A stretch of 64,000 bases of DNA. It comes from a virus. A program made the translations under genes and the position numbers. Under the pieces are notes generated by a model, which was not told where the DNA came from, searched no databases, and worked only from the letters and a program-made list of their open reading frames with translations. Location of the stretch: the IMG/VR virus record IMGVR_UViG_3300030616_000506, positions 80,546 through 144,545 of that record. One strand, written 5' to 3'. Of the stretch, positions 36,606-56,177 are shown in pieces. Numbering within the stretch: the stretch's first letter is position 1; each line of letters starts with the position of its first letter.

Positions 36606-36953
36606 TCATAAAATTTCTACCATCGCTTCTTCCTTATCTAACTTTTCTCCATACTCATTAATATATGATCTATTAACTAGAGCATTTTTATTATTGGTTA
36701 TATTATAATATCTATAATGTTTACTAACATATCCTAGTATCCTTATTACTATAGTATCATCATCTTTCCATTTTAATCTTAAAATATCTCCTTTCTTATA
36801 TTTCTTTCTGTAACTCCATCTCTCCTTTAGATAACCTATAGGATGATAGGGAGAATTATAAAAGATATGAGTTACTCCTACTACAGTGATAAGACAAAAA
36901 CCAAATAATATTAGCACATACATTGTAGCATTAAATATATCTATCCAATTCAT
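36606..36953 (-). CDS. Membrane-anchored KOW/SH3-like protein with C-terminal tag (EEAMVEIL)
   Basis: N-terminal TM, YKKGDILR, tag. Confidence 0.6.
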   Translation of the reverse strand: MNWIDIFNATMYVLILFGFCLITVVGVTHIFYNSPYHPIGYLKERWSYRKKYKKGDILRLKWKDDDTIVIRILGYVSKHYRYYNITNNKNALVNRSYINEYGEKLDKEEAMVEIL

Positions 36954-37198
36954 AATAACTCCACCATTATATCATCTTCTGATAATCTAGTTAATGTGTC
37001 ATGTATCCTATCAATATAAGTGATTTCATCATCTTCAACACCACTATCTATATTAATAATACACTTTATACAATCTTCAAAGCAATCATCTTTATAATGT
37101 ACATCTATAATAATTATACCTATAAAACTCTCTCCATTATCTAAAGTTACCTTTACAATATCTCCCTTATTTAAGTCAGTGAATTTTAAAGATGACAT
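36950..37198 (-). CDS. KOW/SH3-like small protein with C-terminal tag (DDIMVELL)
   Basis: LNKGDIVKV start, tag. Confidence 0.65.
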   Translation of the reverse strand: MSSLKFTDLNKGDIVKVTLDNGESFIGIIIIDVHYKDDCFEDCIKCIINIDSGVEDDEITYIDRIHDTLTRLSEDDIMVELL

Positions 37199-37769
37199 CT
37201 CCCTTACCTTCTAAACAATACTTACATTTATCACAAGTTAATTTAGATCCATGACCCTTACTACACATATGACCTGTAGGAGCATCTTTATAGTTAGGTA
37301 TCTTATTACTACCATCATCTATAACATATGCCTTTAATCCATCTTTAGGTACTTCTTTACTATCAGGCCATATCGTCCAATAGAGTATAAGATTATCAGG
37401 TTTATAGCTTAAGTCTAAATCATATATTTGAGTATAGGCTAAGAACTTTATCTCTGGAAATAGATAAGCTATAGTACACCATGTGTTAAAATATTCCTGT
37501 GAATAGAAATCTCCTGATTCATGTATCCTAAAGTAAATAGGTTGCTTTAATGATAACCAACTATATAAATTCCACATAAATTGTTTAAATCTTTTACTTT
37601 CTTTATAATTTTTTTCTCTACTAGGTAGAACATTAGGCCATACTCTCTCAGCTTTTTTAGCATAACAATATTCTTTACATAGATCAGTAGCTCCTGGACA
37701 TGTAGTCTCTGCCGGTAGACTAAATGTGGGTATTTCCATTCTTCTATTACCACTACTTATATATACCAT
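37176..37769 (-). CDS. Gene-product-88-like protein (radical-SAM-related Cys motif)
   Basis: FSLPA..TCPGA...C...CYA, FRIHESGDF, AYT, C-terminal CxxCxxC. Confidence 0.75.
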   Translation of the reverse strand: MVYISSGNRRMEIPTFSLPAETTCPGATDLCKEYCYAKKAERVWPNVLPSREKNYKESKRFKQFMWNLYSWLSLKQPIYFRIHESGDFYSQEYFNTWCTIAYLFPEIKFLAYTQIYDLDLSYKPDNLILYWTIWPDSKEVPKDGLKAYVIDDGSNKIPNYKDAPTGHMCSKGHGSKLTCDKCKYCLEGKGDVIFKIH

Positions 37770-40109
37770 TCTTTTTATTCTCCTGATATTCTAAAATACA
37801 TTCCTTACAAACTTCTGGTAGCTGTTCACATAATCCATAATAAGTTCTATTGTAGAATCTAGGCATTTGTTCACATGGTAATCTATCTTTCCAATCAATC
37901 TCTTTCTTCATATTCTATCCCCATTTAGCCTTATTTATTTGTTGTTTTGTATAATTTCTTTTTTCTTCTTCTATATTATCTTCTGATAGTTGTTCTCCCT
38001 GAATTACAAATATACTATCGTGTATCAAACCTAATTCTTCATTCATATAATCAAGGAGTCTTTCTATTTCCTTTTCATGATAATCATATATTTTATTTGG
38101 TATTATTATTCTAATCTCCATAATCTTCTCCATGTTCTATCACTTCCAAATCTACATCCGTACTTTCTATCTTTTCAAACTTACATCCACAATCTTTACA
38201 TTCCCATACAGATACATCAGTCCAACTCCATTCGTCTCTCTGGATAACTTCAGAGTCATCTATAAGTTCTACATTATCACTATCACATTCAGGACAATAG
38301 TACATTATTATTCCTCTATAATATTGCATTTGCTATAAACATTAGTAAAACAAAGTTCACGATAGTAAGTCCTATTCCCACTCCATCTAAAAATTCTTTA
38401 CTTATCATTTATATCTCCTCAAGCTCTTGCTTGAATATCATTATCAATTTCTCCTAATATTTTAGATACTTCCTCTAATTGTTTCCATTGTTCATCTGTA
38501 AGCATATAACAGGCTCTATCTATATTGTTAGCTCTGAATAATATATGTTGTGTTAAATCTCTTCCTTTCATTTAATATTCTCTCCTTAAATATAACCATA
38601 CACATGATAAGAATATAGCTGCACCTAGAATAGGTATTCCCAACATCAAATATAATGGTATTTCATATTGTTCTTCTATCAAAGTCATACCAGCAAATAA
38701 TAATACTATTAACAATCCAGATAATAATACAGCTTTATCTATTAAGTAACTCATTCTCTCTGTCTCCTTCCATCTCCATAGTTCTTATCTTTATATTCTT
38801 GATATGGAATTATTATAAATAGAAAGGTAAATAGTGTAGGAATCATAGATGATATAATCCCAAAAGCAAGACCTCTATCGCCTGATATTAGATAACCAAT
38901 TACTCCACATAATAACATCCATCCACCTGCTATTAAGAACACCCCTAATAATTCCTTACTTATTTCTGTATTTACTTTGTTCTTCCAATACCATCTTAAA
39001 AATCCTTCTTTCTTTTTCATATCTTATCTCCTATATGTTTTTAAATCTGATACTCTAACATATTCTCTAGCATCATTTGGCATTTCTGCTATATAAAACT
39101 TAGCAAACATTGGAGCAGGTTTACCTACCATCTCTAGAGGAATAAAGTTTTCATCATCTACAAAATCACTTTCTGATATCTCTTTTGCAGTATAAACTTT
39201 GACTCCATGTTCTTTAGCAAGTTGTCTATTTTTCTCTTTATCTCTATCCATTTGCTCCCAATGCTCTTCTAAATTTTTCATATCTGGAGTTTTTTCATTA
39301 ACCACATAATCTTCTTCAATCACTTCTTTTATTGATTCTTTAATTAATTCTTTCATCTCTTTCTTTTTCATTTAATCTACTTCCCATAATGCAATTCCTA
39401 TAACCCAAGCAAATATTCCTTCAAAGAAACATATTAGTAATGTTACTAAAAAGGTTACTATAGATTGCCAGAATCCTATTGGATTTAGCAAGTTCCAGAT
39501 ACCAAATCCTATTAGAAAAGGTGACAAGAAACATCCTATACTTAATAGTTTATTTATCATTCAATCACTCCTTATAGTATACTCTAACTCAAAACTCTTT
39601 ATTATCTTTTTATTCTTCATATATTGTAGCAACTCATAGTAATCATTCATTAGATTCTCTAGCTCACTTGTTCTCCAAGATGCTACAAACTTATCATTTA
39701 CCTTTACATCCAAATATTCTGCCACCTTTATATCTCCTTAAATCTATCTACTTGTTTCATTTCTTTCTTCTTAGATACTTTAATATGATACCACATATAT
39801 TTACATTTCCCACAATATTCCATATCTCTATATTCATAATCTGCACAATCAGATATATAATGAATACAATCACTATATTTACAAGGCGAATTACCTAATG
39901 CTAATGCCATCTTTATATCTCTCCTAATGCTTCTATTACAGCTAGCCATCCAAATACTATCTCTCCTAAACCTGCAAATAATAATATTATTGCTAATAAA
40001 CTATTTACAGAACTATTATAGTCATTAGCTAAAAACCATATTGCTATACTTGCTGTGATAATAAAACATATTATCATCAATGTTAAAAAGATTTTACTCC
40101 TTTCCATCT

Positions 40110-40661
40110 TTATATCTCCTTATACTCTCCATATAAATTCTTTTTACAGTAATTCAATTTAATCTTATTATATTGTTTTAAGACTGATGTAGTGGATACG
40201 GGAGTAAACTCATTGACATCTACTCCTACATTAATGATAGGAATACTGGGATTACTCTTTAATAACTTGAACTTCCACTTCTCATGGATATGTCCACAGA
40301 TTACAAAGTCACAGATAGGTAATATCTCTGGAGGATGATGTTGTACAAATACATCCTTACCTCCAAAGAACATCATGGCTTTATCAATATAAGTTTTAAC
40401 TCCATTATTCATATCGTGATTTCCTCTGATGTGTACGATACTACCATTTAATTTCTGTTCAAATAATCTACCATTATCCTGACCCTTAAAGGCAAAGTCT
40501 CCAACATGATAAACTAAATCATCTTTACTAACAACATTATTCCATCTCTTAATAATCTCTTCATTCATATGATTTACATTCTTGAATGGTCTATTGGTAT
40601 ACTTAATAATATTGTCATGGTCAAAGTGACAATCTGCAGAAAAATATATTTTCATTTTCAA
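40110..40661 (-). CDS. Calcineurin-like metallophosphoesterase
   Basis: ADCHFDH, HVGDF, RGNHD, CGHIH, INVGVD. Confidence 0.9.
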   Translation of the reverse strand: MKMKIYFSADCHFDHDNIIKYTNRPFKNVNHMNEEIIKRWNNVVSKDDLVYHVGDFAFKGQDNGRLFEQKLNGSIVHIRGNHDMNNGVKTYIDKAMMFFGGKDVFVQHHPPEILPICDFVICGHIHEKWKFKLLKSNPSIPIINVGVDVNEFTPVSTTSVLKQYNKIKLNYCKKNLYGEYKEI

Positions 40662-40771
40662 TCACTTCCAAAATTGTTTCATTATACATCTATAATGTCC
40701 AACTGTCATGCCTATGTGATAAGTATCATCACCTAATGATTTACCACATATATCACATTTATCCATTTACA

Positions 40772-41188
40772 TTACTCCCATTTATAAGGTAAGTCATCTG
40801 GAATATCCCAATTATACTTACCATAAAACTCTTTATCCTTTCTTAATAGATTACTCTTATGAGCATCATGGAAATCTTTTCTACCAAGCCAAGGGGGATA
40901 CTTAACTATCGCAGGACATCCTAACAATGTCATGTTGTTTTTATATCCTCTTTTAATCCATTCTTCAACTATTACATTATGATATTCTATCAATGCAGGT
41001 AAATAATCATACCATAGGTATATGGCAGGATGATTACCCCAAGCAACATCTGAAGCATCTTTACCATTCTTAATTTGCATTATCACATTTATTATTTGTC
41101 TTGCTTCTACTCTCTGCTTACCTAATCTTCTATAGTCTAAACATTCAGCTGACTTTTTAAAATCAGCATATGGTAAAAAGGTTTGCAT
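40772..41188 (-). CDS. Pyrimidine-dimer DNA glycosylase/endonuclease V-like protein (MSMEG_6728 type)
   Basis: MQTFLPY...LDYRRLGKQRVEA, WGNHPA..LW, EWIKRGY, PPWLG...HKSNLLRKD. Confidence 0.85.
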   Translation of the reverse strand: MQTFLPYADFKKSAECLDYRRLGKQRVEARQIINVIMQIKNGKDASDVAWGNHPAIYLWYDYLPALIEYHNVIVEEWIKRGYKNNMTLLGCPAIVKYPPWLGRKDFHDAHKSNLLRKDKEFYGKYNWDIPDDLPYKWE

Positions 41189-41230
41189 ATTACATCTCCT
41201 GTACAAATACTATCTCAATAATCTTAGGTA

Positions 41231-44200
41231 TTAAAGCTCTTCTATCATTAATTTGTCCTTGCTTATTTTCATTACACATTTTTTATCTATTGCTCCATAC
41301 TTATGGGGATTTTCTGACTTTAACATCTTAACATAATAGAACTCTTCTCCATCATCTCCTATTATGTATCCATAATGATCATCCCAAACTAAACCTACCC
41401 ATCCACAATCTTCATCTCCAGGTATAGAATATAGATAAGTAGTCTTTAATACTCTAAAGTAATCACCCTTTTTCATAATGATGCAACCATAGCCTCATCT
41501 TCCGTTAATTCTGTAGCACATTTATCCCAATAGTATCTGCTACAATATATTATTCCTATATTTCCTTCTATAGGATCTACATATAATTTATACTTAAGAC
41601 TAACTCCATACATACAACCATCAGGTTGATGTTTTACTCCTGCTAATCTAATCACATAATGCTCTTCTCTGAAAGTATCATTGTATCTATAATATCTACC
41701 TATCTTCATTGATGTCATAAACTATCAACAATTAATTCATCAAGAGTATCATAAAATTTAAACATCTGATGCCAACCAAATTCACTGTCTCCTTTCCATA
41801 TCCAATGATACTTAACTTTAGGATTATGGGGATAATTTGATTTTATTAATTCATATTTATAAACTACTTTACACTCTTTAAATATCTTACCTACTATATA
41901 AAAACCTATTTTATCTATTTTAAAATACTTTCCTTCTTTAGATTTCATACATCATCATCTCATCTAATAGATTTTTACCTAAATAAGATAGTAACTTTTT
42001 CTTATTATTAAATCTGACAGATACATTCTTATCATCATCTGCACTTATTAAAATAACTTCATAATCATCATCAACACCACCATGAATAACTAATGATAAT
42101 CTATTATCCTTTAATTTATAAACCCATAAATAGTAATCATAATTAACCACATAGAATACATCTGGATATATTAAATTAATTAATTCTTCTACTTCATTAC
42201 ATATTCTATTCTTCATAATAGTTCAACCATAACTTCTTCATAAGATAGTTTCTTACAAATTTCATTCTTGAAGTTTAAACCAATCCATCTATCTCCCCAC
42301 ATCCATTGAAGTTTTCCAATAGTTTTTATTATTTTAAATTTATATTGATTAATTTTATTTTTATTTATAATTTTTAATATATAAACTCCGTGTAAATATC
42401 TAGACTCATATAATATATAGTCTCCTATCTCAAATTTATCATAGGGTCTCATATCTTATCAACTATATTTGCATCTATTACATAAGTAAAGTCATGATAC
42501 ATTCTTATTGAATACTTATAATCATCATTCTCTATATCATTTGTATAAGATAATCTATTAACTACCCAATCAAAATCCTTTTTATTAAGTAAACCAAATG
42601 AGCCTAAACTATAATATTCTCCATAAAACTTTTTATTATAAGATAACTTTAAATCAGCTCTATTCATTAAGTTCTTAACTAATGGCATAGATATATCTAT
42701 AGCCTCAGGATTTATTGTTAAATATACTCCTCCCCAATTCTTATCATCATTACTCTTATATATAGTTCCCCATATATTACCAGTTATCTTTTCATTATCA
42801 CTTTTTCTAGTGATTATATATTCCCCTATCTTTTTCTTCATACTAACTCCCTAAATTAATCTATGTAAGATATAAGGTGATACTTCCTCTCTAAATTTAG
42901 AATAAGCCTTTGAGTTATTTTCATATACTTTCTTAACATTATCTATAATATCTTCCAATAATCCAATAGCTCTATCATCTAATTGTCCTAACATAAATCT
43001 ATCATCATCACTTAATCCTGCACCAAGAACAATTCTATAACCATAATAAGCATCTTTTTTACTAAAGTTTAAATTTATTAAATCAGATTCAATTGATACC
43101 CTCATTTTATCATAATTTATAATAGATAAATCTTGTATACCTTCACTATAATTATTTTCAATCTTAATCCTATTAGTATTTAATTTTATTTCATTATCCT
43201 TTAAATCTATATCCCTCCATGCTAATGCACATTTCCTAAATGCTCTAAATATTTCTTTCTTATCCTCTTTTTTTATGTAATCCTCTATATCAGGATTTCT
43301 TTCTACTATATATAAGATAGCTTTAAAGTCATCCATCATCTTTGTTGCATCTTTATCATGTTGTCTATAACTCCAATAGTAATATCTATCATTAGGTTTA
43401 AAGGCTAATCCTCTAGAATTTAACCATAATTCTTTTTCCCATGTAGATTCCTTTACCTTATCGGATATCTTTATATTTGTTTCTATTCTACCCGATATTA
43501 TTCCATGAAAGGATTTAAAGTATAATTCCCTAAATGAATTCCTAATATTACTTAAGCTATTCTCTCCCCTCATATATGTATTAACTTCATCTATTAAACT
43601 TTCTAATCCCTCTACTTCATTTGTATTATCTATAATAAACTTTTCTGTTATTTTCTCTTTCTTTTCCTTTATATCATTTATTTGATTTTCTAGTTTATCC
43701 TTCTCTAAATCAAGTTCTTCTATTTTTTTATTTACATCTTCTATCTTTTTATTTATATCCACATTTTACCTCCTATAAACTCTCAACTATCATTTCATCT
43801 TTACTTATCTTTTTATAATCCCAAGCATCCTTATGACAAGTTATTCCTATTAATCTACTGTGCCTCATAAATTCATTAGTTATAATACTAGTAAATATCT
43901 GTTTTAGTTTAACTTCTATTAAATTATTATATTGTTTTACTGACTCAATATAAATAAATGATTTATATTTACCATCTGGATATATATAGTATTCTCCCTT
44001 TTTAGGTATCATAGTAATTCAACCATAGCCTCATCTTTAGATAATTTCTTTAAATCAAAAGCATATCTTTTTATACCATTAGTATGATTTATAAAATATT
44101 CTCCATATATATTTGGTATATATAATAATGGACATATTAAGTAGTAATCAGTATCTACTTCCTCCTTTATGATTCCATATATAGGATTATCTTTATATGG

Positions 44201-45742
44201 ATAATCTGATTTAACTAAATCTCCTTTCTTAAATTTCATAATAACTCTACCATTACTTCATCTCTATTTGCTATCCTTAAACATTTATCATCAAACAATT
44301 CTGTTCTTCCTTTAATCCTTCCATTTAGAAATCTAACAATATATGGATATTTTTTAATTGGATATACATCTATTATTTCTGCTATTAATCCAACTTGATT
44401 CCTATAATATGTAACCTTTGGATGAAGTATTATCTTCACATAATCTCCTACTTTATACTTCATAACAATTCTACCATTACTTCATCTTTATTCTTAATAA
44501 AAGTTATATCTATTACTGATGAATCTAAATTAAAATGTCCTTTTTCTCCTACATCCCAAACACTATTCTCATCAGCATATATAACTTTACAATAAGGAAA
44601 TTTATTTATTCTTGTATTATATTCTAATACTACAAAATATACTTCAAATGATTTGTAATATTTATATATAGCCTTTATATAATCTCCCTTTTTAAATTTC
44701 ATAAATTAAACACCATTATTTCATCATCAGTTAACTTCCTATCAATTTCCTCTTCAGATAATAAAAACTCAAACTCAGTGTTAACATAACTTGAATTTAG
44801 TATCTTAACTAGATAGGGATATTTTCTATCCTTTCTTAATTTAGTTACTATTGCTACCTTATTCTCAAATCCATCATAAATTGTTTTTCCTATTAATATA
44901 TAATCATTTAATTTATATAATAGTTTCTTGAATCTCATAACATCTCTACCATAATTTCATCATTAGATAATTTTTTATAATCAACACTATCACTAAAATA
45001 AATCTTTGTATTAGGATTAAATAATGATTCCCCTTCATAGCAATAAATATAATTACTCTCTATTATAGTAATTCTAAATAATTCTCCTTCATGATTTTTA
45101 ATTACATCTCCTTCTTTAAACTTCATAATAATTCTACCATTAATTCTTCCTTTAATTTATTAATGTCATTAACCTTAAACCATCTCCTATGTAAAGCAGG
45201 AAATATAAAACTTAAATTTATAGGGAGATTCCAGTATGTTATATCATTTGTATTAATTTTACTATCATTAGTTTTCTTATATAAAACTTTAACTTCAACA
45301 TAATTAAAATCTGCTCCAGCCATATACCTTTTCTTTAATTCTAATATCCTTCTAATCTCTAACACAAATATATTAACCTTATTATCATCTACTTGTGCAA
45401 TTATATCTCCTATTTTCATAAAAATTCAACCATAAGACTATCCAGTATATCATCTTCATAGCACTCTAATATATCTACTTCCTTATCAGATATCTTTTTC
45501 CAAACTTCTGACCACATTAAGCTAGATTTTTCATTAGTAAAATTCTCATCTACCTCTCTAATCCAAGTTCCTTTATTATTTGCTGTGATTATTCTAGAAG
45601 TTTCCTTTATTAGAACAGCAGGAAACAAATCATATTTACCCTTCTCAATATCAATTATATTAGCCAACCAATAATATATAATATAATCTTTAGTTTCCTT
45701 TACTATATTAAAAGTCATATTCCTATAATGTTTTCTTAACAT
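41231..45742 (-). other. Tandem array of 15 small ORFs (plus one 303-aa ORF) mostly ending in the shared C-terminal tag, many with a KOW/SH3-like (K/I)GD(Y/V) start
   Basis: Termini MIEEL, MVASL, IVDSL, MMYEI, MVELL x5, IVDKI, IVESL, MVFNL, MVEML, MVEFL; mostly ATGA overlaps. Confidence 0.85.
42851..43762 (-). CDS. Hypothetical protein with N-terminal coiled coil
   Basis: 303 aa ORF within the tag array; ends ILHRLI (loose tag variant). Confidence 0.6.
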   Translation of the reverse strand: MDINKKIEDVNKKIEELDLEKDKLENQINDIKEKKEKITEKFIIDNTNEVEGLESLIDEVNTYMRGENSLSNIRNSFRELYFKSFHGIISGRIETNIKISDKVKESTWEKELWLNSRGLAFKPNDRYYYWSYRQHDKDATKMMDDFKAILYIVERNPDIEDYIKKEDKKEIFRAFRKCALAWRDIDLKDNEIKLNTNRIKIENNYSEGIQDLSIINYDKMRVSIESDLINLNFSKKDAYYGYRIVLGAGLSDDDRFMLGQLDDRAIGLLEDIIDNVKKVYENNSKAYSKFREEVSPYILHRLI

Positions 45743-45753: not shown

Positions 45754-47094
45754 TTAATTTCTTTTTGGTAATTCTATCACTTGTCCATAAGGAAAATCTT
45801 TAGAATCTGCTCTCCAATGTCCAGCTACTACCCATAAGACAGGCATATTAACTTGACTTTTAGGAGGAAATGATGTATAACCATCCGTAAAGGCTATAAC
45901 AAATTTAGATTGAGGTTTATTCTTATTAATCCAATCAAATACGGGAATGTGGCTAGTGCCTCCTCCTCCCTTAAGATTCTTACCTATTCTCTCAACTACT
46001 TCAGATGCTTGAGCATTTCTCATGGGATGAATACCATTTACTTGACAATCACAATCTATTACCGTTAAATCAACATTCTTAAAACTATTACATATACTAG
46101 ATATTTCAGATATAAATTCTGCTAATTCTTTTTGACTTATACTTCCTGATGTATCTACTGCTACCATTACATCTATACTTTCCCTAACAGTATCAGGTAG
46201 ATATATTCCTGTGCTATAACTTCTTTTAGATGGTTTAGCCCAAGTAAAATCTATAGGAATTTGATTTGTTATATATCTATAAAGTAATCCTTTCCAATCA
46301 ATATAAGTTTCCATTAATTGTCCAACTACTCTCTCCATACCTGCTGGTAAATCTCCTCTTTGCCTAGCATAAGTGCAAGCATCTACTAAAGTCTTTTTCC
46401 AATCAACTTGTTTATCAGATATCTTCTTACCATTCTTATTACCAGTTCCATTACATTTAGGGCAATCCTTATCTCCTACCTTACCTGTTCCATTACAGTT
46501 ATCACACTTACCATTTTTCTTTTTATCACCTTTACCATCACCATTACCATAGATATGTTTATCAAAACCCTTAACACCATTCTTCTCTAGGTATTTCTTA
46601 ATGGCTTTCATATCCTTTTTAATCTTTTTAGATAGTCCTCTATATAGTTTATCATATACTTCTTCAGATGTTTTCTCAGATGCTTTCTTAATAGTAATAC
46701 CAAATATAGTTATCTCTCCATTATAGGGATTAATAGCATTTTCAGGTAAACTCATACCATCATCTAATAGCATAGAATTAATTACTGTATCTGATGCTAT
46801 ATTAAATAACTCGTGGTTTTTACCCTTACCTCTCTCTAAATGTTCTAATGCACAATGCATTACTTCATGTGCCATTACTCCCTTTATCTGGTCATCTGTT
46901 AGTTTATTTATAAAATCTGAATTAAAATACAGATTACCATACATATCTACTCCTGCTGTTTCTATTTCAGGTTGCTCTATAAAGGTTAAGTGCATAGTTA
47001 AATAACTAAAGAAGGGTTTCTCTTTTTGTAATTGCACTCTAGCCCTTATAAGTTTTTCTTCTGCTGTTAAATCTAGGTTTAATATTCCACTCAT
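45754..47094 (-). CDS. DUF2201-type metallopeptidase-like plus VWA domain protein with inserted DnaJ-type zinc finger
   Basis: TAGVD, AHEVMH (HExxH), NIASD, CDNCNGTG/CPKCNGTG, MIDAS VDTSGS, GGGGT, FTDG. Confidence 0.88.
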   Translation of the reverse strand: MSGILNLDLTAEEKLIRARVQLQKEKPFFSYLTMHLTFIEQPEIETAGVDMYGNLYFNSDFINKLTDDQIKGVMAHEVMHCALEHLERGKGKNHELFNIASDTVINSMLLDDGMSLPENAINPYNGEITIFGITIKKASEKTSEEVYDKLYRGLSKKIKKDMKAIKKYLEKNGVKGFDKHIYGNGDGKGDKKKNGKCDNCNGTGKVGDKDCPKCNGTGNKNGKKISDKQVDWKKTLVDACTYARQRGDLPAGMERVVGQLMETYIDWKGLLYRYITNQIPIDFTWAKPSKRSYSTGIYLPDTVRESIDVMVAVDTSGSISQKELAEFISEISSICNSFKNVDLTVIDCDCQVNGIHPMRNAQASEVVERIGKNLKGGGGTSHIPVFDWINKNKPQSKFVIAFTDGYTSFPPKSQVNMPVLWVVAGHWRADSKDFPYGQVIELPKRN

Positions 47095-47095
47095 A

Positions 47096-47302
47096 TTACA
47101 ACTCCTCTATCATTATTTCCTCTCTTAATTTTTTAGTATCAAAATTTATAGCTATATACTTTGCTATACATTCATATATTTTACCTCTCCTTTCTATTAC
47201 GGGATATGCTTCACAATAGTCATTTCTACAATCCTCTATCGTATTCCAATCTTCTATTATATCTAGTAAATCATCTATCTTTTTCTCTATTTCTTTATTC
47301 AT
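47096..47302 (-). CDS. Hypothetical protein with C-terminal tag (EEIMIEEL)
   Basis: ORF track; tag; lies between AAA and VWA genes. Confidence 0.6.
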   Translation of the reverse strand: MNKEIEKKIDDLLDIIEDWNTIEDCRNDYCEAYPVIERRGKIYECIAKYIAINFDTKKLREEIMIEEL

Positions 47303-47544
47303 ATTGCATACACCATAACTTCCTCTAAAGTTAATTGAAATATTTTATCATCACTATATACAAGTAAATATGTATCAGGATTACCATTTTCATCTGCGTA
47401 TATACATTGAAAGGAATATAGATTATCTACATCTAGAAATCTAATTACCTTACCAACATATACACAACCAAAATCAATTTCTTTTCCTGATATTACCTTT
47501 ATATATTGTCCTATCTCAAGTTTATCATAAGTAATCTTTTTCAT
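47299..47544 (-). CDS. KOW/SH3-like small protein with C-terminal tag (EEVMVYAI)
   Basis: LEIGQYIKV, tag. Confidence 0.6.
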   Translation of the reverse strand: MKKITYDKLEIGQYIKVISGKEIDFGCVYVGKVIRFLDVDNLYSFQCIYADENGNPDTYLLVYSDDKIFQLTLEEVMVYAI

Positions 47545-47548
47545 AAGA

Positions 47549-48694
47549 TTAAGTCAATAGATACTTTTGATATTTTTTGCTAATAGGTTTCCAAGATTTA
47601 AGAGTAGTTACATACTTCTTAAAGGATGAAGGATGTTTATTCTTTGCAAATCTCAAGAGAAGTATAGCAAATTCTGGTTGAATAACATTTGCTATTTGTA
47701 ATACTTTCTCTAGGTTTTCCTTCTTATTATTCATAGCATACCATTCTGCAACCATACCCAATAGAGAATACTTTAAATCCATTTCTTTAATATTGGCTGC
47801 CTTTTCAGGTCTAGCTAATATCTCATTAAGATTAATGTTCTTTTGTAATCTTAAGAAGGATTCAAATTCACTAGCTGCACCAACTCCAACACTAACACAA
47901 GCATATTGATATACTTGTTTTAAATCCTTAACACCAGATATAAGTTTATTACAATACTTACCCCAACTTCTAGGTGTAGGAAATGCTCTCTCATTACTAT
48001 CAGCTTTTATTTTAGGATTTAATAGAGTAGGTCTTTGTATTAAAAAGGATACTATCCTCATATCAATACCCTTCTCTAATGCCCATTCTCCCCAATCATT
48101 CTTACACTCTTGTGTAATATGGGGTATCTTTAATGTAGCATGACAGAATCTATTCTGTAAAGGTCTAGGCAAATCATATACATTTGCTTTATCCTCTATC
48201 CTATTACCAGCTGCTATTAAACCAACACCTTCAGCTAGTGCAACTTCTCCCATTTCTCTATCTAATATTAACTGATAAGCACCAGCCTGTATAGAAGGAG
48301 GAGCTAAGTTTATCTCATCAAAGAATATAATACCCATAGCATTCTTTAATGTTGCTACCAATAACCAGAATGGTATTTTCCATTCACAAGTATCTTTACC
48401 ATTTAAGGATGGTAGTCCTCTTAAGTCACTTGGGTCTAATTGGGATAACCTAATATCCATTAGAAAGAAATACTTTTCAGGATTATCAGCAACTTTATGC
48501 TTCTCTTCCTTTGTAAGTTTATTCCATCTAACATAGATTCTCCCGTGTTTTCTTGCTAATTCTTCAGCCTTCTTGTCCACAGTTTCTGATTTTCCTATAC
48601 CAGTTGCACCCCATATATATAATGGAATGTTAGATTCATAATGGACATCTACTAGGTTTTCTAATTCTTTATGGTCTACTTCTGCTACTGCCAT
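47549..48694 (-). CDS. MoxR/dynein-related AAA+ ATPase (partner of the VWA protein)
   Basis: Walker A GATGIGKS, DLRGLP, Walker B FFDEIN, AAGN, LQNRF, FPTPRSW. Confidence 0.9.
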   Translation of the reverse strand: MAVAEVDHKELENLVDVHYESNIPLYIWGATGIGKSETVDKKAEELARKHGRIYVRWNKLTKEEKHKVADNPEKYFFLMDIRLSQLDPSDLRGLPSLNGKDTCEWKIPFWLLVATLKNAMGIIFFDEINLAPPSIQAGAYQLILDREMGEVALAEGVGLIAAGNRIEDKANVYDLPRPLQNRFCHATLKIPHITQECKNDWGEWALEKGIDMRIVSFLIQRPTLLNPKIKADSNERAFPTPRSWGKYCNKLISGVKDLKQVYQYACVSVGVGAASEFESFLRLQKNINLNEILARPEKAANIKEMDLKYSLLGMVAEWYAMNNKKENLEKVLQIANVIQPEFAILLLRFAKNKHPSSFKKYVTTLKSWKPISKKYQKYLLT

Positions 48695-48705
48695 ATATTT
48701 TTCTC

Positions 48706-50979
48706 CTATAATTTTTCTACCATTACTTCATCATTAGTCATAATCTTAAATTGATAAGAATAATAAGATTCATCATAAGGTTTCCAAGTAGAGTGTCTTC
48801 TATCAATAAAAGCTACTTTGTATTCTACCCTTTTCTTACAAGAACTATCCCATTTAACTATTCCTTTAATCTTTCCTATCTTTCCAGTATCCCAACCCTT
48901 TATTATCCTTACATATTGTCCTAATTTACCTTTTTGTTTCATAATCTCTCCACTAATATTTTATCCTTTATCTTTTTCCTCAATATTATGTAATCCTTAA
49001 ACTGCGTATAGAAACTTATTAGAAAACAATGTAGATGATACTTATCATATCTAGGTCTACTTGAATGCCCCCAATATTCTCCTGCTAATAATCTAACTAC
49101 ATCATCTCCCTCTTTAATAGTTTCTCCACAATATTCACAATTACACTCTAGATGCTTATACATCTTTCCTAACTTTATTTCGTGTGAAGTCATAATTTAT
49201 CAACCAACATCTTTTCTTTCCATTTTTCTAGAGAATCTTTATCTAATTCTAAATATAATTGTTCAATACAATAACTACATATTCTTTTATGTGAATATCC
49301 CCATTGAGTTCTATATTCAAATGATATCCTATCTATATCTTTAGGAATAGTTTTACTACATACTGAACATACTTGTCTACCATTTTCTCCCTTATTTAAT
49401 CTATTTCTATATCTATCACTCATTACAATTCATCCAATATCATTTGATTAACAATCTCCTCCTCAATTAAGGGTGTCAATTCAACTTTACCTAATCCATT
49501 TTGTTTGATTTCTCTTAATAAACTTAAACCTTTACTTAAGGATAATACGTGTCCTTTATTTTCCACATATCCTCCATTTCTTATTATCTTTGAAATATGA
49601 TAGCACAATAATCCTCCTCTTTTTCTAAAGAAGATTAAACAACCACAATAAGATTTAGCATAAGCTATTGCTTCTCTAAACATAGCTCTCTTTATAGTTC
49701 TAGTTTCTCCCCATCCTATACTGAAGTATTGTATTCCACAATCTCCTAATACATCTCTAACGGTTGTTGTATCCTCAACATCAGGCATCTCTACTAAACT
49801 CTCCTTTAATCTTAATCTATAAAACTTTTTAAGTTTATTTAAATATTTAGTTTCCATTCTAGCAAATTCACCTATACCATTTTCAAAGTATAATGTAGTT
49901 ACATCATCTTCTGTCTTATAATAGGTAGGTCTAGTGCAATAATAATTTCCTATATCAAACCCTTTATATTTACTAACATCATCAGGTTTATATTCTATAT
50001 AGTATATCTTTCTTTTTTTATCCCAATAATGAGGTTTACTATACAACTTACATTCACTCATTATATCACTCTATAATCCTCATCACCCTCAATAAAGTAA
50101 TAAGGTTTATTTCTATCTTTAAAGTAGATTGTGTATCTACCATCTTCTCCTTTTAATATATTTGTTACTTTTCCTTTTTGTCCATTACTAACTTCTATTT
50201 TATCTCCAACTTTTACCATTTTATAATGCCTCTATAAATGCTTCTTTCTTACTAATCTTTTTAATCTCATTTCTATACCAATAACCTTGAAACTCATAGT
50301 TCTTACCACTGGATATATCTCCTCTAGGATTATAATTAACTACATATCTTTTTCTAAAAAATCTTCCTTTTTCTATAGCTACTATCTGCCCAATCTCATT
50401 AGCTTTATGAACTAATGTTCCATAAACATTAAATTCTTTTTTAACTCTAACGTAATCTCCTATCTTAAGCATTAAATCACTTATCGAACTTACAGTTTCC
50501 TTTATATACCTTACTTAAGCAAATATTATCATTATCCTTATCAGCATAATCACAATACTTACATAGCTTTTTATCTATTTTTGCTTTCATAATTCATCCT
50601 CTCTTAATAATCTAATCTTATTAAATATAATATGTTTATATTCAGATGCCAATGATTGTGCATAGTATATATCATTAAATTTATAAACTATAATCTCACA
50701 CTCAGTATCATCTTTAGAAATTCTAGACCAATATATATGTTTATCTTTCATATTTCCATCCTATAATTTACTTATTAATGCCTTATCCAAATCATCTTGA
50801 GTAGCATCTCTAAATTTATACTGTTCATTATCTACCTCTACACCTACAAATTCATCTCCATTATAATTAAAGATGACCATATATTTTTTAGAGTTATTAG
50901 ATTTTCTACATAAGAACTTCCATTCATCTTCTAAATTTGGAATGTAAGCTACCATTATTTTCTCTTTAGATACGGACAA
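48706..50979 (-). other. Second cluster of tagged ORFs (48706, 48939, 49190, 49423, 50221, 50761)
   Basis: Termini MVEKL, LVERL, LVDKL, ILDEL, FIEAL, LISKL; two carry CxxC...CxxC/HxxC zinc fingers. Confidence 0.75.
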
Positions 50980-51773
50980 TCATATCTCTCCTTATATTTA
51001 ACATTAGTTATTCTTAATAAATCTTTAGGTTTATTCAATTCTAATAAAGGTGTTTTACTAAATGAACAACCATAAACTTTACCTTGCTCATTTATACTGA
51101 TTATATCTCTACCAAAATGACAAGGCTTATCCCAACCTTGATATTTATTTTGAGTTAATATCATATTAGTTAAATCATCTACATAGAAATGTTTATACTT
51201 AAAGGTTGGTGCATAATATAATGCTCTAAACTTTAAGATATCAGGAGCTTTCCAATTCTTTGGATATAATGCAAATACTCTTTCTATCTTTGCACTATTG
51301 AAAAAGTAATGCAGTAAACTTAAAAATGATTTAGGAGTATTTAACCAGTAATTATTTATTAGAAAATTACAACCAACTCTAGTATATTTACTTAACTCTC
51401 TAGTAGTCATACAGTAATTATGTATATCTTGATTAGATTTTATTTTATGTTCATCAAAGGATACACTAACCATCTCTATATCATCAACATAATACTTCAT
51501 AGGTAATGTTCCATTAGTAGTAACATTAGTAATTAATCCATATTTTTTAGCTTCCCTTGAGAAATCTCTCACAAACTCTGGATACATAAAAGGCTCACCA
51601 CCACCTAAAGCTACTTGTGGTGTAAGCTTTGCTAGATAAGGTATTAATTCCTTAAACCAATTATGAGATTTATTATTATCTGTTTTCTTTGGTCTATAAC
51701 AGAATTTACAATCCATATTACAATCAGTTGTAAAGTGTAATGCTATAACTTTATATCTTTTTTCCTTCATCAA
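50955..51773 (-). CDS. Radical SAM enzyme with SPASM/Twitch-like C-terminal Cys motif
   Basis: CNMDCKFC, GGGEP, TTNG, VSVSFD; PC...ISINEQGKVYGCSF...CP. Confidence 0.9.
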   Translation of the reverse strand: MMKEKRYKVIALHFTTDCNMDCKFCYRPKKTDNNKSHNWFKELIPYLAKLTPQVALGGGEPFMYPEFVRDFSREAKKYGLITNVTTNGTLPMKYYVDDIEMVSVSFDEHKIKSNQDIHNYCMTTRELSKYTRVGCNFLINNYWLNTPKSFLSLLHYFFNSAKIERVFALYPKNWKAPDILKFRALYYAPTFKYKHFYVDDLTNMILTQNKYQGWDKPCHFGRDIISINEQGKVYGCSFSKTPLLELNKPKDLLRITNVKYKERYDCPYLKRK

Positions 51774-52063
51774 TATCCTATCTCCAATTTTTTTGCAAAT
51801 GGTAATTTATAAAGATATTCTAAAATCTTTTCCTCACTATTAAAGGGTGCATCTCCCCTAATTTCTATCCAAGATACACTACCTAAACTTGCTGTTTCTA
51901 TATAGGTATCATACCACCAATCATATTCCTCTATGTTATCTTCATCAGCATACTTATCAAGTAATAACAAATATCTATATAATTCTTCCTCTTCTTTATT
52001 GTTTAGATTATCTGTTCTAACTCTCATAGTAGCTTCAGAACAATTTGGGTTTAAATCAATCAT
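51770..52063 (-). CDS. LNPNCSE-motif protein 1
   Basis: MIDLNPNCSE; PFAKKLEI end shared with 52350. Confidence 0.75.
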   Translation of the reverse strand: MIDLNPNCSEATMRVRTDNLNNKEEEELYRYLLLLDKYADEDNIEEYDWWYDTYIETASLGSVSWIEIRGDAPFNSEEKILEYLYKLPFAKKLEIGY

Positions 52064-52353
52064 AATAATTCCACCATTAATTTATTCTTATCTATCATTT
52101 CTTTATAACGATTTTTAATTTCAGCTAAATCTATTAATCCTATATTTTGTTTTAAGGTTAAATCATCTATATATCCATCATACTTTTTTATTGATATAGG
52201 TTTAAATATATAACAATTAGTTAGCATACCTGAATACTTGCTATATCTATATCCTGTAATTTTAATTATATTTCCATTAATCTTATTCTTAAAATATCTA
52301 TTAATATATTTAGATTTTGAATTCGGAAATGATTTATAGGTAGAATTCATCAT
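52060..52353 (-). CDS. Hypothetical protein with C-terminal tag (KLMVELL)
   Basis: Inserted between LNPNCSE genes. Confidence 0.65.
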   Translation of the reverse strand: MMNSTYKSFPNSKSKYINRYFKNKINGNIIKITGYRYSKYSGMLTNCYIFKPISIKKYDGYIDDLTLKQNIGLIDLAEIKNRYKEMIDKNKLMVELL

Positions 52354-52589
52354 ACATATTCCTGCTCATTTCTAATCTTTAATTTTTTAGCAAAGGGTGT
52401 ATTCATAATACATTCCTCTATCTCATCTGTCATATCCTCTACTCTAGCTACTGCATAATCTTTACAACAATCTATTTCATCAAACATAGAAAGATATTTA
52501 TTCATTTCCTCTCTTTCCTTTTTGGTTAAATCATCATACATTATGTAAAGAAATGTAACCCATTCGGAACAATTAGGATTGAGCATCAT
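52350..52589 (-). CDS. LNPNCSE-motif protein 2
   Basis: MMLNPNCSE; PFAKKLKI. Confidence 0.75.
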   Translation of the reverse strand: MMLNPNCSEWVTFLYIMYDDLTKKEREEMNKYLSMFDEIDCCKDYAVARVEDMTDEIEECIMNTPFAKKLKIRNEQEYV

Positions 52590-52947
52590 CTACATCATTC
52601 CCCATATGTCTTCTATTATATACATCTTTAAATGGTAATCCATAACAATTACAAAAGTGTTTCATCTCTTTAGTATATTCCTCTCTAGACCAACCACTTG
52701 TTCCTGATGTTGTCCAATGATTTCTATTAGAGTATATCCCAAAGTAATCTAGGAATAAATCTAATTCAGGTTTTTCAAAGTAAGGTCTATAATCTAATCC
52801 CTTACTATTAGGACTATACAATGCTCTCTCATAATCCTCTTCACTCATTATTCTTTTAAAGATTTTTAATTCATCATCTGTCATATCCTTTAATATTTCT
52901 ATGGGTATCTTATATACTGCTTCAGAACAGTTAGGATTTAAATCTAC
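52573..52947 (-). CDS. LNPNCSE-motif protein 3 (motif lies in frame upstream of the ORF-track ATG; start codon non-canonical or lost)
   Basis: GTA GAT TTA AAT CCT AAC TGT TCT GAA (VDLNPNCSE) at 52947-52921 is in frame with ATG 52884. Confidence 0.6.
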   Translation of the reverse strand, partial: VDLNPNCSEAVYKIPIEILKDMTDDELKIFKRIMSEEDYERALYSPNSKGLDYRPYFEKPELDLFLDYFGIYSNRNHWTTSGTSGWSREEYTKEMKHFCNCYGLPFKDVYNRRHMGNDVDDAQS

Positions 52948-53429
52948 TTTATATTTACATCTGGTCTTTTTAATAAGCTATCCCTCTTCTTTTTACTCTT
53001 TTTACTTTGATAATCTTTAATAGGTTTACAACCATTATGAACCCATTCTTCATATTCATTAGCACTACCACCATCCTGTCCATATACTTCTCCACTTAAT
53101 TCATCCTGTATCTTTTTTAATGTGGGAAATAACTGATGTTGACAATGCTGATGTCCATCTATCCTTATACCATCATCTCCATAACCATTATCCTCACCAT
53201 CTCCATATATATGTATAGTTGCTCCATTTTCATAATCAGGCATATTAGGATTATCTTTATCAAATACTACTGACATCTTATCTCCTGAATTATCCCATTC
53301 ATATATATCATTACTAGGAATTTCTATATAATATATTCCTAAATCTTTAAGCATCTCTATAACTTGCTCTTTAGTATAATCATCAGGTAATCTCAACACT
53401 AACTCACTACAATTTGGATTTAATAGCAT
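52944..53429 (-). CDS. LNPNCSE-motif protein 4
   Basis: MLLNPNCSE. Confidence 0.75.
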   Translation of the reverse strand: MLLNPNCSELVLRLPDDYTKEQVIEMLKDLGIYYIEIPSNDIYEWDNSGDKMSVVFDKDNPNMPDYENGATIHIYGDGEDNGYGDDGIRIDGHQHCQHQLFPTLKKIQDELSGEVYGQDGGSANEYEEWVHNGCKPIKDYQSKKSKKKRDSLLKRPDVNIK

Positions 53430-53905: not shown

Positions 53906-54211
53906 TTACATACCACCACAATCTGTATAATTCTCACTAATAAATGGAGCTATATTATCTAACATATGACTAATATCATCTCCTTGCTCTTCTATTAAGA
54001 CAAGATGTAATAATTCGTGGGATATAGTTGAGCATATAGTCTTATAATTTTCTTCCTTTAAAAATCTAGGATTAAGATGTATCCTATTATCTTCCATTAC
54101 TGCTCCTGTCCATATACCATTCCAACCAAAAGTAAAAATATATTCCTTATCTAACTCATCATATTTCTTTATGGTTATATTACTTCCATCTACAATAGAC
54201 ATAATAATCAC
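53906..54211 (-). CDS. Small HExxH zincin-like protein
   Basis: IHLNP...ISHELLH. Confidence 0.55.
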   Translation of the reverse strand: MIIMSIVDGSNITIKKYDELDKEYIFTFGWNGIWTGAVMEDNRIHLNPRFLKEENYKTICSTISHELLHLVLIEEQGDDISHMLDNIAPFISENYTDCGGM

Positions 54212-55357
54212 TCTGCATAAGTATAATCATTTGGAGGATATGTTTTATTCTGTAAATCCTCAATGTATTTAGTCATCTCTAGTTTCTTTAGTTCATCTAC
54301 TTTCTTTTTTAATCTTTCCATTCTGTCTTCCTCACTCTCATAACTACAATCTACATCATACATTACAGTTCACAACCACATACCCAGCATTCATCTGCAT
54401 TGATATTATTTCCCATTCCACAATCTTTACATATCTTTTTATTCTTCATCACATACACCTTCCCAACATTTTAATAGAGTTTGTATCTTATTTTCTTTTC
54501 CCCATTTCTTTAAATCTTCATAAGCTTCTTTGTGATAAACTTTTATTATCTTTGTAGCTAGATTAATATCACCAGCTGGTCTAGATATATTTATAGTTTC
54601 TTTAATCTCCTTAAACCATTTCTTTTTAGTTCTTTCATAAGGTATATATTTCCATACAGTAGCAAATTTACCTGCACAGGATACCTGAAAATAATAATCA
54701 TCTCCAAAATAATTATCTAGCTCTTTCCTAAATATATCATCTTTCTTTTTTCTTAACATATTTGTGCATATTTCTTCCTTCATATATATTCCTCTATATA
54801 AGATGATATCTCTTTAATATTTCATAGTCCTTAAAGTATAGTAAATCCCATATCTGAAACAGCTTACCCAATCCCATATGGTTACATACACCCAAGAAAC
54901 TACTGTATGTTTGCTCTCTACTTTTTTTACTCTTATATTTCTTTCTCATTTTATTCCTCTTTATAATTACACATTATATCTGAACAACCTAATACCTGTC
55001 CACCACCAGCACAACAATACCATATCTTTAGTGGCTTTCCACAGATAGGACATTTATCTCCTATTTTCATTTCAGTCACTCATCAAAAACTTTTATCTTT
55101 AATAACCATAATTGCATAAGGTATCCAAGCCAATAAATTAAATGGGAATATTTTATCACTAATGGCTAACAGTCCTAATGATACTATTGCACCAAATAGA
55201 AAAGTATATGTTTTTACTTTCATTTTCATTTCAATTACTCTCACTTTAATATTCTACTCGCTAATCTATGTATTCTTTCATGTTGTTTTAATTCTTTTTT
55301 ATTTAGTTTATACCAAACTAATCCTATATTTCTTGTTTTGTATATGTAAGTAATTTT

Positions 55358-55372
55358 CATTTTCAATCACTC
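55358..55372 (-). promoter_or_regulatory. Archaeal-type RBS/start context GAGTGATTGAAAATG
   Basis: Identical 15-mer at 56957-56971, near-identical at 55487-55500 and before several other short ORFs; complementary to the archaeal 16S 3' tail. Confidence 0.6.
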
Positions 55373-55814
55373 TTTTATAATTTCTTTTAAAGTATTAGTA
55401 ACATCAACTCTATTATAATACTTTTTTAAATCTGGTATTTGAGTTTCTAAATAATCTGCTAACCAATTAGGCATTAATATTATATCCATTTCAATCACTC
55501 AACTTTATAAAATTTCTTTTAACTATAAGCTCCTCATATCTTATATCAACATTCATCTTATTGTAATCTATTAAAATTTGATACACCCAAATATTAGAGT
55601 TACCTTTAGTATCAAGATGTATTAAGTCTATAAATTTATCTCCTATTATCATTTTATTTCTTTTCCTTTCTACAACAAGTGCATCTCCAACTATCATCTT
55701 TCATTTTATTATGCACTCTTTTTCCTTTACCATATATCTTATCCTGTTGAGGACATTCACAATCACAGGATAATATCTTACAGTTTGTTTCCTTTTTAGT
55801 TTTATCTCCTTCCG

Positions 55815-56177
55815 TCATAAATATTCCACCATTACTCTATCCCTTAACTCAATGGGTATTTCATTATCCTTTAATTTTCTTAACTTTAAAATTTCTATCC
55901 ACGAACTAGAAGCATACTTATCTCCTTCAACTAATTCCTTTAATAGATATCCCCCATATAATAATAAATCACTCAACATTCCTTCATTATCTTTATATCT
56001 ATTATATTCAAGATAGTAACTCATATTTTCTATATGCAAACAAAATAATCTATCCATAATATATATCCTAAAGAGTTTATTATTAATTCCTGCTATATTA
56101 ATAGGAGTAGCACTAACATAAGTTCTAATCTGACTATCCTCATCTATTTCAGGTAGTTTATTCCTCTTTAATTTCAT
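55815..56177 (-). CDS. Hypothetical protein with C-terminal tag (RDRVMVEYL)
   Basis: ORF track; tag. Confidence 0.6.
   Translation of the reverse strand: MKLKRNKLPEIDEDSQIRTYVSATPINIAGINNKLFRIYIMDRLFCLHIENMSYYLEYNRYKDNEGMLSDLLLYGGYLLKELVEGDKYASSSWIEILKLRKLKDNEIPIELRDRVMVEYL

Follow-up and report, generated by a model that had tools for sequence, protein, structure and literature searches.

A recurring C-terminal tail on small early-arm proteins in a clade of AT-rich, probably archaeal tailed viruses

Why should several dozen small proteins, encoded next to one another in a virus and seemingly unlike in their bodies, end in the same few residues? The question is raised by a 64,000-nt stretch of DNA (the window), positions 80,546 to 144,545 of IMG/VR record IMGVR_UViG_3300030616_000506, which forms the last 64 kb of a single viral contig of 144.5 kb (here G000). 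An initial annotation, made from the sequence without database searches, had listed 33 open reading frames (ORFs) that share a short C-terminal tail and proposed a tagging or docking system. We report here that, in a clade of AT-rich tailed viruses that are probably archaeal, the tail stands at the end of most of the small soluble proteins encoded in the early/replication arm. We put at about one half the probability that it is a common interaction handle, used for docking or assembly, to one shared viral or host partner or among the tagged proteins themselves. Variable "heads" would then be coupled through one invariant tail to that single partner, or to each other. At ATGA stop-start overlaps, the same tail codons also serve as the Shine-Dalgarno (SD) sequence for termination-reinitiation of the next gene. 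The roles of degron, packaging signal and dock offered in the initial annotation are all inferred.

Anatomy of the tail and selection on it

All 33 listed ORFs, designated here by their lower window coordinate, were recovered on the minus strand with the ends attributed to them, including w27757 (...IAVERL) and w32174 (...LMVIAL). Seven end exactly in MVELL, as annotated (w36950, w42213, w44009, w44236, w44460, w45123 and w52060). In the span from 36606 to 56177, the tag is carried by 26 of the 56 ORFs of at least 40 amino acids (aa) and by 25 of the 41 ORFs of 60 to 150 aa. Over the whole 144.5-kb genome, MVE.L stands at a C terminus 12 times and internally not once (43,927 positions), and [ML][VI][ED].[LI] was seen at 16 C termini against 0.08 expected.

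Related loci supplied a pooled set of 557 unique proteins (79,668 residues), 170 of which are tagged. The core motif occurs 154 times in this set: 116 times exactly at the terminus, 5 times at two to five residues from the end, and 33 times deeper inside. Counted from the C terminus, the position profile is S/T at -10, K at -9, D at -8, E at -7, a small hydrophobic residue at -6, M at -5, V/I at -4, E/D at -3, a variable residue at -2 (L, E, K, M, S or R), and L/I at -1. Asp occupies -8 in 97 of the 121 tails at ATGA overlaps and in 30 of the 49 elsewhere, and Glu takes the position in another 20 of the overlap tails. This profile can be read as an N-capping box and, after it, a two-turn C-terminal helix; the consensus is [ST]-K-D-E-Φ-M-[VI]-E-x-[LI]-COOH. 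A second flavour, [ST]-Y-E-E-[FY]-x-D-K-Φ-M-V-x-x-[LI], is found on tagged ORFs near the replication genes. Pfam and PHROGs gave no significant family for any tagged protein, and no published description of the tag was found in the literature.

The tail is a peptide module under protein-level selection, because synonymous divergence is undiminished in it, its amino acids are held more tightly than those of the bodies, its conservation has codon periodicity, Asp is kept at -8, and 49 tails stand away from any overlap. The last eight codons were compared with the bodies in 34 orthologous pairs between lineages, the ratio of nonsynonymous to synonymous divergence (dN/dS) that the initial annotation had suggested computing. 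The tail gave pN 0.28, pS 0.64, and dN/dS 0.25, and the bodies pN 0.37, pS 0.58, and dN/dS 0.46, the pairs being nonindependent and synonymous sites near saturation. Among codon positions, the second never varies and the third is conserved least. The annotated synonymous variation of the tag codons was confirmed, as was the persistence of the tag before TAA and TAG stops without an ATGA overlap (49 of the 170 tagged ORFs do not overlap the next start). Conservation is therefore neither confined to the nucleotide level nor to overlaps. The next start is 20 to 30 nt downstream of Asp -8, Glu -7, and the S/T N-cap, and Asp -8 is outside any SD.

Pairwise nucleotide identity is 61% over the last 24 nt before the stop, 35% upstream, which is background, and 34% downstream. 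Because identity falls to background on either side of these 24 nt, a recombination boundary or mobile cassette end (T4 PeSL-like or integron attC-like) and recent gene conversion are ruled out. Use of TGA as a sense codon was rejected by reasoning: TGA is the stop at the ATGA junctions, and the genes that follow start in a different frame.

The tail codons also have a nucleotide layer. In overlapping gene pairs, the downstream start usually has its SD inside the upstream gene, and removal of this SD generally lowers reinitiation (PMC6728339). Here, 71% of the tails (121/170) are at ATGA overlaps. Val occupies -4 in 33 of 33 tails at overlaps versus 5 of 14 elsewhere (p = 1.5e-6), and the pooled V:I ratio at this position is 110:11 versus 23:26. 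A GG over the -5/-4 codon boundary is present in 28 of 33 overlap tails versus 3 of 14 others. GTG makes up 13 of the 33 tail Val codons at overlaps versus 7.1% of Val codons genome-wide (5.5-fold; p = 2e-7), and GAG is also enriched in tails. Complementarity to the 16S 3' end, tested 5 to 10 nt upstream of the overlapping start, is present at overlap tails. The duplex energy with the anti-SD averages -4.8 kcal/mol for tails (-5.9 for those with GTG and -3.6 for those with GTA or GTT), compared with -4.0 at untagged overlaps and -2.5 at random positions. Nonoverlapping successor genes have, in many cases, a stronger SD of their own after the stop.

A metagenome contig of 3.9 kb (L092) embeds the signal differently. 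It holds an array of about 10 genes of the mini-barrel family described below, each with the end A-M-L-E-x-L, whose Leu is for the most part specified by the rare codons TTG and CTG; its ATG-TTG-GAG tail therefore spells GGAG, so that the same helix accommodates an SD in another way. At ATGA overlaps, the SD of the next gene is supplied by the M-V codons ATG-GTN, with GTG preferred, or in L092 by ATG-TTG-GAG, and this need sharpens Φ-[VI] to M-V and helps to fix the register. The initial annotation had argued for protein-level selection rather than SD and ATGA coupling alone; the first part stands, but the M-V core is partly shaped by the SD. Known intragenic SDs at ATGA overlaps (PMC6728339) resemble the present case in that a downstream SD in the upstream 3' end shapes the last codons; unlike here, that mechanism covers only the G-rich codon choice (M-V, GTG, TTG-GAG) and not a peptide of 8 to 14 residues, its acidic positions, or the tails without an overlap.

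A contrasting case is provided by three ORFs at window positions 39728 to 40661 (minus strand) that end in [KG]-E-I-stop with identical DNA (AAGGAGATATAA; GGAGATATAAAGATGG). The orthologue in lineage L052 ends in KVI (AAAGTGATTTAA; AGTGAT), so that the peptide is altered and the SD retained. This C terminus is dictated purely by the SD of the next gene, the opposite of the tail.

Carrier bodies and distribution

After removal of the 14 terminal residues, BLAST between carriers is almost empty, and 85 tagged proteins fall into 60 BLAST clusters. An iterated hidden Markov model built on bodies alone joined 35 of these 85 proteins, versus 4 of 322 untagged ones, in one barrel family. By their profiles, about 40% of the carriers thus appear to belong to a single fast-diverging KOW/SH3-like mini-barrel family with this helix as its hallmark, and the annotated dissimilarity of the bodies was to this extent overstated. 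It does stand for at least six non-barrel families that carry the tail and lack detectable mutual homology: zinc ribbons, families of 68, 92, about 105, and 130 aa, and the 212-aa protein; many singletons carry it too. In hhalign comparisons with the barrel, the w41938, w42449, zinc-ribbon, w49423, w10648, and w47096 families reached probabilities of at most 7%, as did the non-barrel families among themselves, except for two zinc-ribbon families with each other (83%). Within body families, the bodies have diverged to 30 to 40% identity with the tail still inside the motif. The model of w49423 has a fold different from the barrel, and its tail is the end of a 15-residue terminal helix; its homologues are internal to the clade, and a structure search with it returned no usable neighbour.

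The mini-barrel begins with a K-x-G-D-Y-V strand. It has weak Pfam matches to KOW (E = 0.021; 15.1 bits against a cutoff of 22.3), PsaE, and CarD-RID, and its profile weakly matches uL24 (E = 0.016) and Spt5 in the PDB. In the model of w44009, the helix (residues 68 to 75) directly follows the last strand, with a predicted local distance difference test score (pLDDT) of about 85 for strand and helix. Structural neighbours of the barrel model found with Foldseek and VIA-align were PWWP, Spt5-KOW, Tudor, and CAP-Gly, all subsignificant (Z ≤ 4.4). The likeness to SH3-like barrels (KOW of uL24 and Spt5, chromo-barrel, PWWP, and Tudor) therefore consists of a K-x-G-D-x-V strand weakly similar to KOW and of four modelled strands with a terminal helix, but no match is significant, the family has no Pfam membership, and it is found in one virus clade. 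Kinship with Sso7d was rejected, as the profile search of the PDB gave no sequence match to it.

When 1.84 billion representatives were searched exhaustively with the profile, 158 clusters were returned, 117 of which are of small proteins; almost all of the 117 end in the helix or in a lineage variant of it (AMLELL, IMAEMI, or A[IV][VA]W.I). Larger multirepeat proteins match the barrel part only. A word-based search of 5.8 billion proteins gave 13 matches, so the family is narrow, and a search of the Atlas gave none. The barrel family is confined to one virus clade. The barrel occurs without the helix, and is in that sense independent of it, because an untagged 52-aa orthologue group exists in three lineages in addition to the barrel-only repeats.

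To follow the tail beyond this genome, 50 related loci were fetched with the in-array DUF2201 gene as an anchor. The closest relative (L001; 68% identity, 28% GC) has 16 to 17 tagged ORFs. The sister virus L002 (44% identity, 28% GC) has no MVE.L tail; in the equivalent place, four of its ORFs end in IVAMLL, IVAMAL, LVAQQL, and AVLNKL. The 47 more distant loci have no tail. Protein and DNA-pattern searches added further tagged lineages at 26 to 31% GC, namely L055, L052/L082/L085 (one 80-kb contig; in L085, the tag is on 22 of 35 ORFs), L087, and, from several series of samples, about a dozen contigs of shorter length. The tail, shared by at least five related viral lineages, is uniform inside one genome and varies between lineages: MVE.L in G000, L001, L055, L052/L085, and L087, MLE.L in L092, and IVAM.L in L002. 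In L002 (12080 to 13046, plus strand), two proteins without detected homology end in IVAM.L and share 12 identical nt, ATAGTGGCGATG; the identity, which includes the rare codons GCG and GTG, suggests that the two tails may have arisen from one source not long ago.

The tail occurs only in the early/replication arm. In the first 80 kb of the genome, which carry the structural and glycan genes, there is one loose match, about the chance expectation, and the structural arms of G000 and of records G001 and G002 hold no tagged ORF. The loose match is a cytidylyltransferase-phosphoenolpyruvate (PEP) mutase fusion of the phosphonate pathway (G000:C1:53868-55151, minus strand, outside the window) that ends in KEIVELI; it was rejected as a tag, being at chance level and without the acidic residues at -8 and -7. 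The strict DNA pattern DE-x-MVELL-TGA had 4 matches in 596 Gb of prokaryote genomes. One of them lies on a contig from the clade, and the remaining three, each single, are at about the level estimated for chance. The viral contig collection gave no match to the strict pattern, although the window's own record may have been left out of it and the nearest tail of L001 ends in Ile. The initial annotation had named an equal frequency of such termini in AT-rich archaeal control proteomes as an outcome that would speak against the tag; the equally AT-rich L002, the distant relatives, and the prokaryote genomes served as controls, and a compositional artefact of an AT-rich genome was rejected.

Readings of the tail

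The reading of the tail as an interaction handle has to be set against several observations. No partner of the tail was found. The barrel helix follows the last strand without a linker in a confident prediction, as in chromo-barrel and PWWP-type folds, so it could simply cap the barrel domain. Two to five residues lie beyond the helix in 4 to 5 of the 117 distant family members, and a free carboxylate is therefore not always required. Orthologous families keep their own tail flavours, which is compatible with coadaptation to their own bodies, and five of the eight tail residues are hydrophobic, suiting core packing as well as docking. The within-genome variant of L002 rests on two DNA-identical tails that one recombination event could explain, and the register and the M-V pair are in part explained by SD spacing.

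Much of this would also suit a structural cap or self-association helix without an external reader, which would complete the hydrophobic core of tiny domains, as in chromo-barrel, PWWP, or Sso7d-type SH3-like barrels, or dimerize them; it would be conserved as a structural necessity and would have reached other small bodies by in-frame recombination at gene 3' ends within the arrays. We regard this alternative as possible, with clearly less confidence than the handle. The linkerless, well-predicted helix, the family-specific flavours, the hydrophobic residues, and the few extended relatives all favour it, as do the near-universal helical ends of the 117 small barrel-family clusters and the fact that the weak structural neighbours are SH3-like barrels, several of them with C-terminal helices. 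It does not account well for the same helix and acidic positions on zinc ribbons, helical proteins, and a 212-aa two-domain fold, and untagged barrel orthologues and barrel-only repeats exist. The terminal register is near absolute even without an overlapping start, and no extended nucleotide identity marks recent recombination. A by-product of translational coupling, in which the DNA is only SD, spacer, and ATGA for the next gene and the peptide is functionless, is largely refuted, and we give it almost no credence. The share of tails at ATGA overlaps, the enrichment of GTG and GAG, an SD energy better than random, the V/I switch that follows junction type, and the visibly SD-shaped KEI-stop termini all speak for coupling. 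On the peptide side, however, synonymous divergence matches that of the bodies, amino acids are held more tightly, and there is codon periodicity; the next start is 20 to 30 nt away from Asp -8, Glu -7, and the N-cap, tails with GTA or GTT reach just -3.6 kcal/mol, and many of the 49 nonoverlapping tails precede a separate SD.

Two further alternatives are very unlikely. The tail might be a nascent-peptide signal that acts inside the ribosome at termination and favours reinitiation on the closely spaced next gene; amino-acid conservation independent of the body, the strict stop-codon register, and a next gene within 0 to 25 nt of nearly all tagged genes would fit. We know of no precedent for a positive coupling peptide of this kind, and tails occur with all three stop codons and ahead of 24-nt spacers, 4 to 5 relatives have extra residues after the helix, and untagged overlapping pairs are as common (39 versus 23 in the window). 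A degenerate PCNA-interacting peptide (PIP) box that loads or parks viral proteins on the host PCNA is equally improbable. The host is probably archaeal, archaeal PIP boxes are usually at the extreme C terminus (PMC3504372), and the M-x-x-Φ-Φ spacing can be aligned to h-x-x-a-a. Against this, the Gln-equivalent position (-8) is almost always acidic at overlaps, Gln is not among its common residues, there is no aromatic pair, the penultimate residue varies, and the last is Leu or Ile; no PCNA gene was found in this partial (~45% complete) viral record. Two other candidates were rejected: an HbYX proteasome-activator tail, because Tyr is rare and at -3 rather than penultimate, and a membrane-targeting amphipathic helix, because the tail is acidic and not basic.

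If the tail is an interaction handle, a candidate reader is encoded within the arrays: the virus's own pair of a MoxR-class AAA+ ATPase (w47549) and a DUF2201 protein. [quoted passage not shown] We consider this version doubtful, and the pair is a suggestive but weak candidate only. Each tag-bearing lineage for which the sequence suffices has the pair inside its arrays, and L002 has the pair too. The DUF2201 protein has an invariant HExxH and a complete MIDAS (D314-x-S316-x-S318, T380, and D404); in MoxR/VWA systems, the MIDAS binds an acidic residue of the target (PMC9976466), a precedent that counts for DUF2201 as a tail reader. A DnaJ-type double CxxCxGxG zinc knuckle in its linker (residues 197 to 214) is present in 5 of 5 MVE.L lineages and 0 of 30 other DUF2201 proteins, L002 included. 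The AAA+ assignment of w47549 draws on its Walker A and B motifs and on homologues that stand beside DUF2201 elsewhere and match AAA_5 or AAA_3 above the cutoff (AAA_5 up to 44.8 bits); w47549 as a single sequence has no significant match to solved structures. On the other side, the same pair is widespread in viruses without any tag, the zinc-knuckle correlation is one phylogenetic event, and some arrays lie far from the pair, beside GP88 and RadA. Adjacency of the pair to tagged genes means little, because about 60% of the small ORFs in the arm are tagged. Cofolding of DUF2201 (with Mg and Zn) and the tagged barrel w44009 scored 0.00, which speaks neither for nor against binding. A broader scheme, in which archaeal tailed viruses use clade-specific terminal "address helices" to organize their early proteomes, with the MoxR/DUF2201 pair, its DUF2201 member having acquired a DnaJ-like zinc knuckle next to the MIDAS, reading about 60% of the small early proteins to remodel, deliver, or destroy them at set times and the same codons coupling translation, is speculative and, in our view, improbable.

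Known systems offer partial parallels. Clamp-binding C-terminal peptides include the tails of T4 gp43, gp33, and gp55. With these and with PIP boxes, the tail has in common a short motif at the extreme terminus of many unrelated proteins, which one hub would read here as well, and a hydrophobic core with polar or acidic flanks; unlike them, it has no Gln, no aromatic pair, and a variable penultimate residue, and its carriers are ORFan miniproteins rather than replication enzymes. The ClpX-binding tail of SspB and the ssrA tag are an adaptor tail and a C-terminal degron of AAA+ proteases. Here too, a small beta-rich head bears an invariant C-terminal peptide, which in SspB docks on an AAA+ protein, and a MoxR-class AAA+ is encoded inside the arrays; but the SspB tail sits on a long flexible linker, whereas here the modelled helix directly follows the last strand. 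In poxvirus ankyrin/PRANC proteins, an F-box-like domain of about 40 residues is read by Skp1. The parallel lies in viral paralogues that have multiplied and diverge fast, with target-binding parts that vary and a single conserved box at the C terminus, which in poxviruses plugs into a host machine; the difference is that the tail is a helix of 8 to 14 residues that is also found on bodies without detectable homology.

Should the docking handle prove true, one peptide could pull down the common partner and so give experimental entry to the early proteome of uncultured archaeal viruses, after which the dozens of variable heads could be assigned their targets. Viruses would then also be seen to diversify host-takeover or antidefence proteins around a single invariant connector. 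Whatever its function, the tail is a clean natural example of dual coding, in which a selected peptide is also the ribosome-binding site of the next gene and lineages differ in the solution (ATG-GTG-GAA versus ATG-TTG-GAG). For annotation, it can serve in practice to recognize the clade and its early arm.

Source genome and features of the window

The contig has a guanine-plus-cytosine (GC) content of 30% and an estimated completeness of about 45% (CheckV). It contains an HK97-type capsid gene, a long glycan-synthesis arm, and the early/replication arm, which fills the window on the minus strand. The replication genes are archaeal/eukaryotic in type and include a family B polymerase (PolB), a RadA/Rad51-type recombinase, an ERCC4-(HhH)2 XPF-type nuclease, and a PolB-exonuclease-like RNase H-fold protein. 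Other viral gene products are ribosomal protein eS17 (window 31475 to 31765, minus strand; Pfam Ribosomal_S17e, E = 1e-12, above the cutoff), with an extra, strongly basic C-terminal tail and no other ribosomal gene nearby, and a homologue of the chromatin protein Alba (G000:C1:3837-3995, plus strand, outside the window and close to the packaging genes; PF01918, E = 3e-10). Because PolB, RadA, XPF, eS17, and Alba are all encoded by the virus, the host is, judging from gene content, most probably an archaeon.

PolB had no match in the phage collection, and no tRNAs were found in the window. In the rest of G001 and of the "provirus" record G002, all genes are structural and there is no host flank. 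A 20-kb contig of this virus clade (L053; CAZNER010000036.1) is binned in a "Candidatus Saccharibacteria" metagenome-assembled genome; in light of the archaeal type of the genes, this is probably a binning error and not a host link. Tagged ORFs and selected neighbours are listed in Table 1.

Table 1. Tagged ORFs, the candidate reader pair, and an untagged barrel gene (window coordinates; families and folds as predicted)
Position	Strand	Length (aa)	C-terminal end	Description
4030..4404	-	124	LLVSCI	Tagged; subtype with GGTGA SD
10648..10971	-	107	LMVSKI	Tagged; subtype B tail TY.E[FY].DKLMV..[LI]
27189..27443	-	84	IMVNRL	Tagged; GGTGA within ATGGTGAAT
27440..27760	-	106	LFVIRL	Tagged
27757..27984	-	75	IAVERL	Tagged
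29741..30181	-	146	VFVDEL	Tagged; TAA stop, no overlap
32174..32605	-	143	LMVIAL	Tagged
36606..36953	-	115	AMVEIL	Tagged; hydrophobic segment at N terminus
36950..37198	-	82	IMVELL	Tagged; barrel family
41231..41476	-	81	LMIEEL	Tagged; barrel family; TAA stop, no overlap
41473..41718	-	81	AMVASL	Tagged; barrel family
41715..41948	-	77	LIVDSL	Tagged; barrel family
41938..42216	-	92	MMMYEI	Tagged; non-barrel family of 7-8 members; L002 orthologue ends IVAMAL
42213..42452	-	79	VMVELL	Tagged; barrel family
42449..42841	-	130	NIVDKI	Loosely tagged; non-barrel family
43773..44012	-	79	MIVESL	Tagged; barrel family; TAG stop, then own GGAGG SD
44009..44239	-	76	AMVELL	Tagged; barrel family; model with four strands and C-terminal helix 68-75
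44236..44463	-	75	VMVELL	Tagged; barrel family
44460..44702	-	80	VMVELL	Tagged; barrel family
44699..44938	-	79	IMVFNL	Tagged; barrel family
44935..45126	-	63	IMVEML	Tagged; barrel family
45123..45419	-	98	LMVELL	Tagged; barrel family
45416..45742	-	108	LMVEFL	Tagged; singleton body
45754..47094	-			DUF2201: HExxH metallopeptidase-like domain, clade-specific double CxxCxGxG zinc knuckle (197-214), VWA with complete MIDAS; candidate reader
47096..47302	-	68	IMIEEL	Tagged; helical non-barrel family; TAA stop
47299..47544	-	81	VMVYAI	Tagged; barrel family
47549..48694	-			MoxR-class AAA+ ATPase with Walker motifs A (29) and B (122); candidate reader partner
48706..48942	-	78	VMVEKL	Tagged; barrel family; TAG stop, then own GGAG SD
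48939..49193	-	84	ILVERL	Tagged; zinc ribbon
49190..49423	-	77	MLVDKL	Tagged; zinc ribbon; tail kept in five orthologues
49423..50061	-	212	MILDEL	Tagged; two-domain alpha/beta protein; tail closes 15-residue terminal helix (model)
50061..50219	-	52		Untagged barrel-family member; conserved across three lineages (counterparts in L055 and L001)
50221..50472	-	83	AFIEAL	Tagged; barrel family; TAA stop
50761..50979	-	72	ALISKL	Loosely tagged; TAG stop
52060..52353	-	97	LMVELL	Tagged; singleton body
55815..56177	-	120	VMVEYL	Tagged; singleton body

Other genes of the replication arm, all on the minus strand, encode a collagen-repeat protein (window 29141 to 29716), the ERCC4-(HhH)2 XPF-type nuclease, which is short (30178 to 30810), and a pyrimidine-dimer DNA glycosylase (40772 to 41206). 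Proteins with an N-terminal LNPNCSE motif (51770 to 53429, minus strand) adjoin a radical SAM gene (50955 to 51773), and the tagged ORF w52060 is among them. In the last part of the window (60001 to 64000), GC content falls to 18% and ORFs are sparse, with a 516-aa ORF (60670 to 62220) without a Pfam match; the region may represent an end of the genome, an origin, or a regulatory stretch.

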